From: Escherichia virus TH41
Reading direction: 5' to 3' (one strand)
Length of the DNA: 64,000 bases
Sequence record: MT446412.1
Position 1 is the stretch's first letter; each line of letters opens with the position of its first letter. The notes below the pieces were generated by a model. The model saw nothing but the letters and a program-made list of their open reading frames with translations, searched no databases and was not told where the DNA came from. Of the stretch, positions 8,241 through 10,811 are shown piece after piece. A program made the translations under genes and the position numbers.

Positions 8241-8540
8241 ATGATTTTAACTGAACAAGAAACAATTCGTCTCCGTGAAAAAGTCAAGACTATTTTGTCT
8301 GTTGGTTTTCACGAAGTTCTGTTTGAAAAAGCAGATGGTAGCATCCGTCGTATGACTTGTACTCGCGACCTGGACCTGCTGCCGTATAAAGAAATCCAGA
8401 CCCCTGGACCAGAAGCTCATAAAGAACCAGTTAGCTATATCCGGGTATTTGATACCAAGCTTAATGAATGGCGTTCATTCTGTTTCAATAAATTGATTTC
8501 CGTGAATGGACTACAGACCGAGACACTGCTTGTCCTTTAA
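8241..8540 (+). CDS. Hypothetical protein (31.1 position)
   Basis: 99 aa ORF. Confidence 0.45.
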   Translation: MILTEQETIRLREKVKTILSVGFHEVLFEKADGSIRRMTCTRDLDLLPYKEIQTPGPEAHKEPVSYIRVFDTKLNEWRSFCFNKLISVNGLQTETLLVL

Positions 8541-8571
8541 TGCTTCAAACGGTGCGTGTTATTATTAATAC

Positions 8572-8919
8572 ATGACCAAACAACATGGATTAAATATGGA
8601 ATTACCAATTAAAGCAGTAGGTGAATATATTATTTTGGTTTCTGAGCCAAAGCAAGCTGGTGATGAAGAAACTACGGCATCAGGTATCGTTATCGGAAAA
8701 CTCCATCAGGGTGAAATCCCAGAGATGTGTGAAGTATTTTCGATTGGTCCGGATGTTCCTGAAGGTTTCTGTGAAGTGGGTGATTTGACTCCTCTTCCGG
8801 TTGGCAAGATTGCAAACGTTCCACATCCTCTGGTTGCTCTGGGACTTAAGCAGGCTAAAGAAGTTAAGCAGAAATTTGTGACCTGTCATTATAAAGCTGT
8901 TCCTTGTCTTTATAAGTAA
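8572..8919 (+). CDS. 31: Co-chaperonin for GroEL (GroES analogue) gp31
   Basis: [23 protein letters not shown]...[12 protein letters not shown]...[13 protein letters not shown]...[17 protein letters not shown] closely matches recalled T4 gp31; start could instead be the internal ATG at 8596. Confidence 0.85.
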
Positions 8920-8928
8920 AATTAGCGT

Positions 8929-8936
8929 TATAAATA
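8929..8936 (+). promoter_or_regulatory. Late promoter (TATAAATA)
   Basis: Exact T4 late-promoter octamer upstream of rIII. Confidence 0.45.
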
Positions 8937-9076
8937 ATAATATGGATTGGCTGCCGGACCCGTTAGTTAACCGGAGAATCCTAAACGGTGGACTACAACT
9001 GAGAGACTTGCCGAAAGGAAGTGAAATTCAGAAGAACGTGTCCACCAAATATTCACCTCGTATTGAGGCTTCTAAA

Positions 9077-9331
9077 ATGTCTTTAAATAAACAATTACAA
9101 CACGCTCTTGAACTGCAACGCACTGCATGGAATAACGGTCACGAAAACTACGGCGCATCTATTGATGTTGAAGCCGAAGCACTGGAAATTCTGCAGTATT
9201 TCAAACATCTTAACCCGATTCAAACCGACCTTCGCGCAGTGCTCGAAGCAAAAGATGAACTGAAATTTGCTAAGCCGCTGGCATCTGCTGCGCGTAAAGC
9301 TGTTCGTCATTTTGTCGTAACCCTGAAGTAA
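9077..9331 (+). CDS. rIII: rIII lysis-inhibition accessory protein
   Basis: 84 aa from ATG 9077 (RBS GAGG 8 nt upstream); ENYGASIDVEAEALEILQYFKHLNPIQTDLRAVLEAKDELKFAKPLASAARKAVRHFVVTLK resembles recalled T4 rIII; the track ORF from 8942 is treated as an unlikely N-terminal extension. Confidence 0.6.
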   Translation: MSLNKQLQHALELQRTAWNNGHENYGASIDVEAEALEILQYFKHLNPIQTDLRAVLEAKDELKFAKPLASAARKAVRHFVVTLK

Positions 9332-9728
9332 GCTGTAGGTGATTCGCTACCTTAGTGCGGCTAGAAAATCGAGGAGCCGCCGAATTATCTGATTAATGAT
9401 TTGCGAATCATTATAGTTTTAGACCCCGATAATTTTGTGGTGTACCTCTTGAATGTTATTCTTATAGCGGCAAGTGCATGCTACCCCGAGGTGATGGCCA
9501 ATCGGGAGTACGCCTCAAGGCCTATATATCCATCAGTATATATCTTATCCTCGAGAAATCGAACCCGGAACCTTTAAGCTAACGGTGTGCAACAGATAAG
9601 AGCTATAAGGTATGATGACGAGGTTTATGGTTATCCTGTCGTTAAATATCCGAAACCTAATGTTCCCTTCGAGGGCTTGCGCAGGCAATGCCAATAAGTC
9701 CTGCATTCTATTTTAAAGAGAATTTAAT

Positions 9729-9890
9729 ATGGCTAAGAAAGAAGTTAAAGTTGTTGATGGCTCCTCCAAACGCGCTGGTTACAAGCGTGCGTCCAACAAG
9801 CGAATCAATCAGGTAACTGATAAACTTCAGGCTCGTGCTCGTGCGGTATTGCGTGCCGATGCAGCTTGCTTTGGTAAGCCGAAAGCATAA
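9729..9890 (+). CDS. Small basic hypothetical protein (53 aa; not in ORF track)
   Basis: ATG with RBS AAAGAG 8 nt upstream, Lys/Arg-rich product, followed directly by a strong terminator. Confidence 0.35.
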   Translation: MAKKEVKVVDGSSKRAGYKRASNKRINQVTDKLQARARAVLRADAACFGKPKA

Positions 9891-9895
9891 GTTCA

Positions 9896-9919
9896 GGGAC
9901 TCTTCGGAGTCCCTTTTTT
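9896..9919 (+). terminator. Intrinsic terminator
   Basis: Hairpin gggactcTTCGgagtccc followed by TTTTTT. Confidence 0.7.
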
Positions 9920-9934
9920 ATTTTCCATAAAGGG

Positions 9935-9964
9935 GTTTACAACAGGGTTGGTCCAGTGCATAAT
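9935..9964 (+). promoter_or_regulatory. Early-type promoter (GTTTAC ... CATAAT) with conserved leader
   Basis: Leader cataatgattccatactgagtta is identical to the one at 33432-33454. Confidence 0.5.
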
Positions 9965-10005
9965 GATTCCATACTGAGTTACACAATAAAACACTGGAGA
10001 ATAAA

Positions 10006-10374
10006 ATGAAAATCAATCTTAACTCATACATCAAAGGTAAAGACCACGACGGTTACAAAGCCATTGAAACTAAAGAAATGCAATGGCACTTGTATAAAGA
10101 ACAATTTGAATTCGTTTCTTGCATGACTCCAGAAGGTCCTTCTGATGACTTCTCCTGGAAAATTATGGTAACAAACTTTTTTACTGGTGATACCTACGAA
10201 CTGAAAACTTTGATTCTTGGTAAGATTCGTTGTAAGACCTATGAAGATGAAGAAACTGGTTATTCTGAAGATGTTACATGGTATCAAAATGGTCGCACCA
10301 CTGCTGATGATTTGATTGAAAAAATGAAAGCTAAGGGTGAATTAAATTTAGATAATTGGATTAAAGTCGCATAA
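10006..10374 (+). CDS. Hypothetical protein (30.x-type cluster)
   Basis: 122 aa ORF; RBS GGAGAA. Confidence 0.5.
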   Translation: MKINLNSYIKGKDHDGYKAIETKEMQWHLYKEQFEFVSCMTPEGPSDDFSWKIMVTNFFTGDTYELKTLILGKIRCKTYEDEETGYSEDVTWYQNGRTTADDLIEKMKAKGELNLDNWIKVA

Positions 10375-10378
10375 AACA

Positions 10379-10407
10379 GTTTACTTTGGTACAGGTTATG
10401 ATATTAT
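10379..10407 (+). promoter_or_regulatory. Early-type promoter (GTTTAC-17-TATTAT) inside a 9-bp perfect inverted repeat
   Basis: ggtacaggt ... acctgtacc (about 10388-10418) flanks the -10 hexamer. Confidence 0.45.
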
Positions 10408-10445
10408 AGACCTGTACCAACAAATGAAAACAACTGGAGAATAAA

Positions 10446-10811
10446 ATGAACTACATCAACTTTGAACGCAAATATGTTTCTAACTGCATCCCAGGTTCTT
10501 CTGAAGTTATTTGCTTGTGGAAACATAAAAATGGTTCAGTGTGCGAAATTGAGCAGTATATGACTCCTAACTACGTTTATATGCGATTTGAAAATGGTAT
10601 CACTCTTTCAATCACTATGACTGGTTCAACTTTTAAAATTGCTTTAGATGATGATTTCCGTGAACGTGATTTAGGGACTCATCCTTGCTGGAATGGTGTT
10701 AATCGCAAGCTGTTGGTTAAAACTTGGATTCGTCATATCCTGGGTAACAAAGCAAAACCTGAACACCTGGAAGCAATCTTTGATGTAGTTCTTAATGAAT
10801 TTGATATCTAA
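10446..10811 (+). CDS. Hypothetical protein
   Basis: 121 aa ORF; leader ACTGGAGAATAAAATG shared with ORF 10006. Confidence 0.5.
   Translation: MNYINFERKYVSNCIPGSSEVICLWKHKNGSVCEIEQYMTPNYVYMRFENGITLSITMTGSTFKIALDDDFRERDLGTHPCWNGVNRKLLVKTWIRHILGNKAKPEHLEAIFDVVLNEFDI

Follow-up and report, generated by a model that had tools for sequence, protein, structure and literature searches.

In this study, we have analysed a window of 64,000 nucleotides (one strand, 5' to 3') from Escherichia virus TH41 (MT446412.1) and, within it, the spacer that separates the stop of gene rIII (9331) from the ATG of gene 30.9 (9729). Based on our comparisons with other T4-like phages, we are highly confident that this gap (9332-9728) is a chain of conserved RNA modules arranged around a new, 147-nt structured RNA family, hereafter the core (9462-9608); the core and the modules around it are all on the + strand. 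A sequence-only reading had singled out the gap because, in an otherwise tightly packed early region, it holds no open reading frame (ORF) of 60 aa or more on either strand, and had suggested that it could encode a small RNA, act as a regulatory leader or be a decayed gene. The absence of such an ORF holds, the largest being of 58 aa (TTG start, 9401-9577, + strand) and 53 aa (9545-9706, - strand), and the structured-RNA option is now strongly supported by seven helices and a kissing loop with compensatory changes, together with further co-varying hairpins on both sides of them; the core itself, which is the main element of the gap, had been overlooked. The gap is not a chance feature, since a rIII-30.9 spacer of 158-419 bp is present in all T4-like loci examined and 995 phage records match part of the one in the window by blastn, although only 178 of them cover at least 80% of it.

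The core, which the covariance model R1 scores at 185.9 bits in the window, consists of helices P1 to P7. P1 (9462-9468 / 9602-9608) closes the domain, and P1, P2-P3, P4 and P5 are predicted to meet in a four-way junction, which would be perfect, without unpaired bases, only if P2 forms (GGC/GCC, 9469-9471 / 9520-9522; invariant, and placed by energy alone). P2 is separated from P3 by the internal loop J2/3, in which AAGUGCAU (9472-9479) lies opposite CUCAAG (9514-9519); all positions but one of the AAGUGCAU strand are invariant. P3 (9480-9491 / 9498-9513) has two bulges and carries the loop UGAUGG (9492-9497), which is complementary to the loop CCAUCA (9530-9535) of P4 (9523-9529 / 9536-9542), so that the two loops form the 5' and 3' partners of the kissing contact. 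P5 (9543-9549 / 9595-9601) opens into a three-way junction bearing P7 (9563-9567 / 9583-9588) and the GNRA hairpin P6 (9551-9554 / 9559-9562), whose GAAA tetraloop (9555-9558) is GAAA or GUAA in most copies, and P7 is joined back to P5 by J7/5 (GCAACA, 9589-9594). Among 32 distinct copies, 56 of 151 positions are invariant and half of these (28) are unpaired, clustering in J2/3 and J3/2, in the P7 loop (9568-9582) and in GCAAC of J7/5 (9589-9593). This is the pattern expected of a recognised surface or a binding pocket.

The evidence for this structure is comparative. RNAalifold, applied to 13 distinct copies, returned the multi-helix fold with 10 compensatory pairs. When 16 distinct copies are aligned independently with MAFFT, 98% of the pair cells are paired and 13 pairs have changed on both sides, which none of 500 shuffles reaches and of which structures slid by 1-3 columns retain at most 3. 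With the 32 distinct copies, 28 of 44 pairs have changed on both sides (0 of 500 shuffles reach the observed value; slid structures give at most 7) and 97.7% of the pair cells are paired, a percentage that is inflated in favour of the structure because this alignment was fitted to the covariance model. The compensatory changes fall in every helix but P2, with a single such pair in P7. They extend to the kissing loop, a pairing of 6-7 bp that exists in five co-varying versions: CGAUGG/CCAUCG in 19 distinct sequences, UGAUGG/CCAUCA in 7, CUAUGG/CCAUAG in 3, UGCAUUU/GAAUGCA in 2 and CAAUGAU/GUCAUUG in 1. Folding energies by themselves are uninformative, with z-scores between -0.1 and -1.7, and would not have flagged the gap. 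RNA folding had been put forward by the sequence-only reading as a check, and the z-scores that it gave are modest, -1.5 for the gap as a whole and -1.3 for its core; the single-sequence centroid fold of the window core agrees all the same with the comparative structure.

The pair cells of the core contain 58 G·U and 0 A·C combinations, which identifies the + strand, that of rIII and 30.9, as the strand under selection; together with the GAAA loop on that strand, this rules out an RNA read from the minus strand. The core of the window is 96%, 86%, 85% and 71% identical to those of four other phages, whose DNA for gp31, rIII and 30.9 is only 64-75% identical. Compensatory changes above the controls, G·U pairs specific to one strand and conservation above that of the neighbouring genes together characterise the core as a conserved structured non-coding RNA. 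Several observations weigh against this reading and have to be set beside it. Apart from the inflated percentage in the 32-copy alignment, P2, and hence the "perfect" four-way junction, is without support from co-variation. In addition, 159 copies are at least 99% identical to the window core, in phages such as JS98, JS10 and Dhakavirus CLBP2, and this near-identity could reflect recent exchange instead of constraint. Other contacts that we considered within the core were discarded: a pseudoknot between GGCG (9490-9493) and CGCC (9511-9514) clashes with co-varying pairs of P3, J2/3 does not by our reading fit the K-turn consensus, and pairings of J3/2 with the P7 loop, or of UGCA (9475-9478) with UGCA (9588-9591), meet inconsistent substitutions or invariant positions.

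The core belongs to no family catalogued in Rfam 15. At E up to 10, a scan of 8500-10500 with its 4227 covariance models, another of the checks that had been suggested, left 9332-9728 without a hit; the best hits elsewhere in that segment were Atu_C8 on the terminator after 30.9 (21 bits against a threshold of 50) and chance matches to miRNA and snoRNA models. ARAGORN found no tRNA or tmRNA gene in the whole window, nor in the rIII loci L003, L004, L029, L034, L035, L038 and L046 of our comparison set. A lead towards bacterial RNase P RNA, from the shared strings GUGCAACAGA and GAACCCGG, gave no hit at E up to 10 either; the two strings stand in the opposite order to the one that we assume for E. 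coli M1 RNA, and we take the resemblance as chance. A search of the literature, including for exact sequence strings, returned no description of the core RNA. A bulk catalogue lists 10,006 unnamed viral RNA candidates obtained, on evidence of the kind used here, from co-variation in intergenic regions of IMG/VR contigs, and its main text makes no mention of T4-like phages, Straboviridae, Tevenvirinae or Klebsiella (PMC10690425). IMG/VR does contain copies of the core RNA, which may already be among those candidates.

On the left of the core, RNAalifold with nine T4-type spacers gives three further elements, in two modules. La (9344-9360) is a small hairpin, UCGC.AC / GU.GCGG, in which the pair 9346-9358 is G-C in five sequences and A-U in four, while the pair 9349-9356 is A-U, G-U or G-C. 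Lb/Lc (9371-9448) is a long-range helix (9371-9389 / 9428-9448) around an inner hairpin of 8 bp, UAAUGAUU-UGCG-AAUCAUUA (9394-9413), which is invariant across the spacers compared; in the long-range helix, both partners have changed at five pairs, as in AUUAUC/GAUAAU against ACUGUC/GACAGU in T4. These elements take up the bases of the 6-bp stem that the sequence-only reading had described, gcggct/agccgc at about 9357-9380, which is not the conserved fold. Its halves were placed correctly (9357-9362 and 9375-9380) and could pair in the window, but the 5' half is used by the La hairpin and the 3' half by the long-range helix of the consensus, and by our own reading of the alignment the T4 counterparts gtgagct and agccgt pair over only about 3 bp.

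To the right of the core lie three hairpins and a fourth over the ribosome-binding site (RBS) of 30.9. H2 (9615-9657) is the hairpin AUGAC(G)AGG ... CCUGUCGU at 9615-9642 with the conserved loop GGUUAUC and the conserved tail UAAAUAUCCGAAACC. Among thirteen variants, two of its base pairs show three Watson-Crick types each, and we read its upper stem AGG/CCU as UAG/CUA or UGG/CCA in other clades. H3 (9665-9675) is CCC-UUCGA-GGG, CCCUUCGAGGG; it is found in nearly all spacers as CCCUUUGAGGG, CCCCUUGAGGG or CCCUUUAUGGGG, and we read CCUCUUAGAGG in L052 as a change on both sides. H4 (9681-9704) is GCAGG-CAAUGCCAAUAAGU-CCUGC, whose stem is by our reading ACUGG/CCAGU in L034 and L035 and whose position is taken in other clades by larger hairpins (GGGAGC...GCUCCC, GUGGAG...CUCCAC, GAGAGG...CCUCUC). 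Finally, the minimum-free-energy fold of 9609-9728 places a small hairpin, AUUCU...AGAAU (9705-9728), over the purine-rich RBS of 30.9, which it would sequester; Klebsiella-type spacers have an analogous hairpin, UUCUCC...GGAAGA.

The spacer is a mosaic. Compared with T4, its left and right parts are of T4 type and about 88% identical, and between them is an insert of about 150 nt that T4 lacks and that also follows rIII, with 91-96% identity, in Klebsiella, Enterobacter and other phages. The very site of the core exists in three states: the core, a different hairpin of about 50 nt (VR20-type: L029 2870-2925, L033 and L031, with …CACGCGUCAGAAAAAGGUUAUCUGUCUAAGUCGUGG… and CAGA/UCUG replaced by CAGC/GCUG in L031), or neither, as in T4. 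The order of the modules also differs. H2 is downstream of the core in the window, whereas Klebsiella phages have H2 and a La-like piece upstream of it, and H3 comes first in Karamvirus and EcS1. In some clades the core begins 12-17 nt past the rIII stop, and the sequence that flanks it differs between clades, which along with the closing helix P1 marks the core as an autonomous domain; the modules of the spacer are taken to fold independently of one another. The permuted order of hairpins suggests that RNA structure modules, and not only genes, are shuffled in T4-type genomes, which bears on how the transcript architecture of these phages is read. In one IMG/VR locus (L041 2100-2710, IMGVR_UViG_3300045988_074297), a 3' fragment of rIII (residues 45-84) lies inside a cluster of 15 tRNA genes, and the start of a tRNA-Gln directly follows TTTATTGGAGATT, the 13 nt with which the T4-type rIII-30.9 spacer also opens. 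It may be that a recombination junction is seen here, or that the left spacer module derives from a tRNA; no tRNA model supports the latter origin (Rfam scan, ARAGORN).

With the insert as query, blastn matched 406 phage records, 395 of them over at least 80% of its length. Their hosts are Klebsiella (161), Escherichia (129), Shigella, Enterobacter, Yersinia, Salmonella, Citrobacter, Serratia, Raoultella and Erwinia, and the carrier records that were inspected are labelled Gaprivervirus, Karamvirus, Kagamiyamavirus, Slopekvirus or just Straboviridae. More distant copies were recovered with model R1, in L039, Serratia phage 4S (157 bits), Escherichia phage EcS1 (105) and Slopekvirus K41P2 (86). 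A covariance-model search finds a single core in the window and none anywhere in the T4 genome, and blastn finds no match among 5,426 E. coli genomes. In GTDB (185,579 bacterial and archaeal species, one genome each), pattern scans on two and on three anchors returned 0 and 37 hits, the 37 being chance matches by their covariance-model score. The 13 metagenome contigs with the anchors all carry full-scoring copies of at least 180 bits; two IMG/VR pattern hits, L070 and L071, were set aside as chance matches.

In Slopekvirus-type contigs the core occupies another locus, 9 nt after a small ORF downstream of uvsY, where it faces the convergent genes uvsW.1 and uvsW. This copy (L051 9378-9560; L047 1250-1480) is followed by hairpins including the H3-like GUACCCCUUGUGGGGC and GCUGAUUAAUCAGC, and then by a bidirectional terminator-like hairpin. 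With convergent genes ahead and such a hairpin after it, the core has no downstream gene to regulate in Slopekvirus. Because it has settled after the uvsY cluster in this lineage and after rIII in others, the core is a portable module, and we regard it as an accessory module of the T4-like phages of Enterobacterales.

The locus around the gap is that of Gaprivervirus: its segment 8900-10000 matches two members of this genus, Escherichia phage UPEC01 at 99.9% and Shigella phage SP18 at about 97% identity. The genes, all on the + strand, are in the order cd, 31.2, 31.1, 31, rIII, 30.9, 30.8, 30.7 and onward. The records of UPEC01 and SP18 call rIII as a protein of 129 aa (8942-9331), of which PHROG 1457 matches only residues 48-129; the T4-length form is 9077-9331, and rIII is 76-87% identical in amino acids in an alignment with T4, Klebsiella and Enterobacter phages. 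The ATG at 9077, preceded by GAGG, is the more likely start, and the one at 8942 directly follows TATAAATA (8929-8936), which we take to be the T4 late-promoter consensus. If rIII does start at 9077, it would be separated from gene 31 by about 157 nt of non-coding sequence, a second such spacer. Downstream of the gap, the ORF of 53 aa that had been described as Lys/Arg-rich (9729-9890) is indeed a gene, 30.9, which encodes a basic protein (PHROG 1427, E 2.9e-26; gp30.9 in the SP18 annotation). The strong terminator proposed after it corresponds to an intrinsic-terminator-like stem of 8 bp with a T-run (9895-9914, in a feature that spans 9895-9921; + strand), which in the terminator scan is the first such site after rIII and TATAAATA, none being found between 8800 and 9894; no second copy of its stem-loop was found elsewhere in the window. 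Right after it and before 30.8 there is a sigma-70-like promoter at 9936-9964 (TTTACA, 17 nt, CATAAT; 10/12 matches), a terminator-plus-early-promoter arrangement that is typical of T4 early regions.

Some further features of this neighbourhood were noted. SP18 (L002 2534-2884) and PQ765507 have an extra gene of 351 nt, gp30.6A, between 30.9 and 30.8 just past the 30.9 terminator, which is another presence/absence polymorphism near the rIII-30.9 spacer. The 1.1-kb query 8900-10000 matches 2-4 separate places in many phage records and the gap alone only one, which indicates that some part of the flanks, outside 9332-9728, has further copies in those genomes. The UPEC01 record labels 31.1 and 31.2 "tail fibers protein" and cd "tRNA-specific adenosine deaminase".

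As for the expression of the core, we found no dedicated promoter conserved upstream of it across its different contexts, and the scans found no terminator-like site adjoining it. It would therefore be read within the transcript that runs from gene 31/rIII to 30.9. Early, middle and late promoters all drive rIII in T4 (PMC9409239), and by analogy the core would be transcribed throughout infection as part of the rIII-30.9 transcript. We propose that the core RNA persists, either within this mRNA or as a nuclease-resistant fragment, and that it acts by its three-dimensional shape and not via 30.9. Its conserved pockets would bind a specific partner, which might be a protein of the host or the phage, a small molecule or, through the complementary loops, other molecules of the core RNA, and the RNA would thus serve as a decoy, sponge or scaffold that aids infection in some hosts. 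Such a host-specific advantage fits the accessory distribution of the core. We put this trans-acting, partner-binding role forward tentatively, as a proposal whose chances fall somewhat short of even. Three considerations count against it. Transcription of the core is deduced from gene orientation and by comparison with T4, the case for the mechanism, with its hypothetical partner, is made chiefly by elimination of other readings, and a position in a 3' UTR (untranslated region) or between cistrons is equally compatible with a role in cis in the stability of the mRNA.

This last role is a doubtful but serious alternative. The fold and its neighbouring hairpins would block 3'-to-5' exonucleases or shield RNase E or RegB sites, and so stabilise the message of rIII or of the uvsY cluster or set the points at which the polycistronic transcript is processed. 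The core does always lie immediately 3' of a cluster of genes in the same direction, whether past the rIII stop or past the small ORF of Slopekvirus; other stable hairpins surround it, and mRNA-stabilising elements can be portable. However, simple G+C-rich hairpins, of which H3 is already one, suffice as exonuclease blocks, whereas a kissing loop that co-varies, 28 unpaired bases that never change and 71-96% identity speak for a specific shape that is recognised. Furthermore, close relatives without the core keep rIII and 30.9.

A more specific version of the partner-binding proposal takes up the geometry of the loops. If P2 forms, P4, the kissing helix and P3 would stack over about 25 bp by a rough estimate of lengths, and the strands of J2/3 are only 8 and 6 nt long, which would make the contact within one molecule hard to achieve without a sharp bend. 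The loops might instead pair between molecules, as in phi29 pRNA. The core would then represent a novel class among the accessory RNAs of phages, one that forms dimers or rings and whose invariant pockets sequester a host factor or an immune signalling molecule, making it an RNA-only device for counter-defence or host takeover. We consider this unlikely; if true, it would have been missed for decades because T4 itself has no core.

It is improbable, and somewhat more so, that the core is a riboswitch-like sensor, that is, an aptamer for a metabolite or signalling nucleotide whose ligand stabilises P1 and alters the expression of 30.9 and the early genes downstream. Its architecture is aptamer-like, with a closing P1, multi-helix junctions, a kissing loop and invariant junction bases, and the predicted RBS-sequestering hairpin precedes 30.9. 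To this extent the idea of a regulatory leader, raised by the sequence-only reading, keeps some ground. Yet none of the riboswitch models of Rfam gives a match, even at E up to 10, the terminator scan found no terminator/anti-terminator alternative, and between P1 and the start of 30.9 lie 120 nt that contain three unrelated hairpins. A role as the leader of 30.9 is unlikely because these intervening modules are present in T4, which has the spacer without the core, because the position of the core relative to the other modules is permuted between clades, and because the Slopekvirus copy has no gene downstream on the same strand.

That the core is a self-cleaving ribozyme cutting the rIII-30.9 transcript is very improbable: its unpaired bases are strongly conserved, and in its size, in its loop-loop contact and in the predicted perfect four-way junction, one arm of which has an internal loop, it is reminiscent of the hairpin and Varkud satellite ribozymes, but no ribozyme family of Rfam 15 matches, and the single N-GUC-like site, which lies in J2/3, varies between copies, U9475 being G in several of them. 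We give still less weight to an element acting as DNA (replication origin, recombination or homing site, packaging signal), with which the presence/absence polymorphism, the module shuffling at the site and the near-identical copies in 159 phage records would agree; the excess of G·U over A·C pair cells denotes selection on one strand, a GNRA tetraloop and a kissing loop are features of RNA, and no endonuclease gene was found adjacent to the core. Least credible of all, and rejected here, is a decayed gene or a set of small protein-coding genes, which gene callers imply in several GenBank records, since neither Pfam nor PHROGs has a match for any of the five small ORFs in the gap, copies of the core differ by 1-nt and 2-nt indels inside the supposed ORF, the longest stop-free run is at most 25 codons in L039, L044 and L052, and the substitutions compensate each other in pairs. 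Those records place "hypothetical proteins" of 31-58 aa over the structured region (UPEC01, L001 2002-2317; Klebsiella phage phi1_146043, L004 1383-1745), and such features over the core are best regarded as gene-calling artefacts.

T4-like phages are among the best-studied viruses, and phage therapy makes wide use of them against E. coli, Klebsiella, Enterobacter and Shigella. Among their sequenced genomes, about 400 carry an RNA that is more conserved than the genes around it and is mis-annotated in genome records, an annotation to be corrected. Close relatives that differ only by the presence of the core (VR26-type with it, VR20-type without it, and T4 with an empty site) provide natural controls, so that its contribution to host range, defence evasion or gene expression can be tested directly. 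Even if the core were only an mRNA stabiliser, it would still be a new and well-defined RNA family.

Among the RNAs of T4-like phages themselves, the stable RNAs species 1 and 2 of T4 (rnaC, rnaD) resemble the core in being of about 140 nt, accessory and unevenly distributed. Unlike the core, they are located in a tRNA cluster and have tRNA-like ends, and T4 has both of them but no core. Models R1 and R2 find nothing in T4 between 50 and 100 kb, including 70889-71152, and so give no sign of homology. The rnaC/rnaD region (T4 70889-71152; L067 20889-21152, - strand) is matched in 800 phage records, mostly of Escherichia and Shigella phages; UPEC01 matches only 13% of it, and Klebsiella phages, which provide 161 of the core carriers, are not among the ten genera named in the summary of that search.

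Of all the families considered, the core comes closest to folded RNAs of aptamer type or pRNA type, yet it belongs to none of them. Its aptamer-like architecture recalls the lysine and purine riboswitches: in both, P1 closes the domain, several helices meet in a junction with invariant nucleotides, and neighbouring hairpins are joined by a kissing loop that co-varies. The core differs from them in having no Rfam match and no recognisable expression platform, and in being portable, even to a locus without a downstream gene; the combination of aptamer and expression platform in a conserved arrangement with a gene, which defines riboswitches in general, is not found. ROOL and GOLLD are structured orphan RNAs that are often carried by phages and were defined by co-variation (PMC5737381), and a preprint reports that they form RNA-only multimers (10.1101/2024.12.08.627333). 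The core is likewise a structured RNA without assigned function that is defined by co-variation. ROOL and GOLLD are 3-5 times larger, come from other bacterial lineages and give no cmscan match, and multimerisation of the core is hypothetical.

The pRNA of phage phi29 (RF00044) forms a ring in which complementary loops pair between molecules, "hand in hand". The core has no cmscan match to it, its loop pairing is of 6-7 bp against 4 bp in pRNA, it lies in an early/late intercistronic spacer and not at a genome end, and its carriers are T4-like. Because packaging of T4 type needs no RNA and T4 lacks the core, it is not an essential part of a packaging motor. What the two have in common is that each is a phage RNA of 120-170 nt built on a helical junction, with two complementary, co-varying loops in every molecule.

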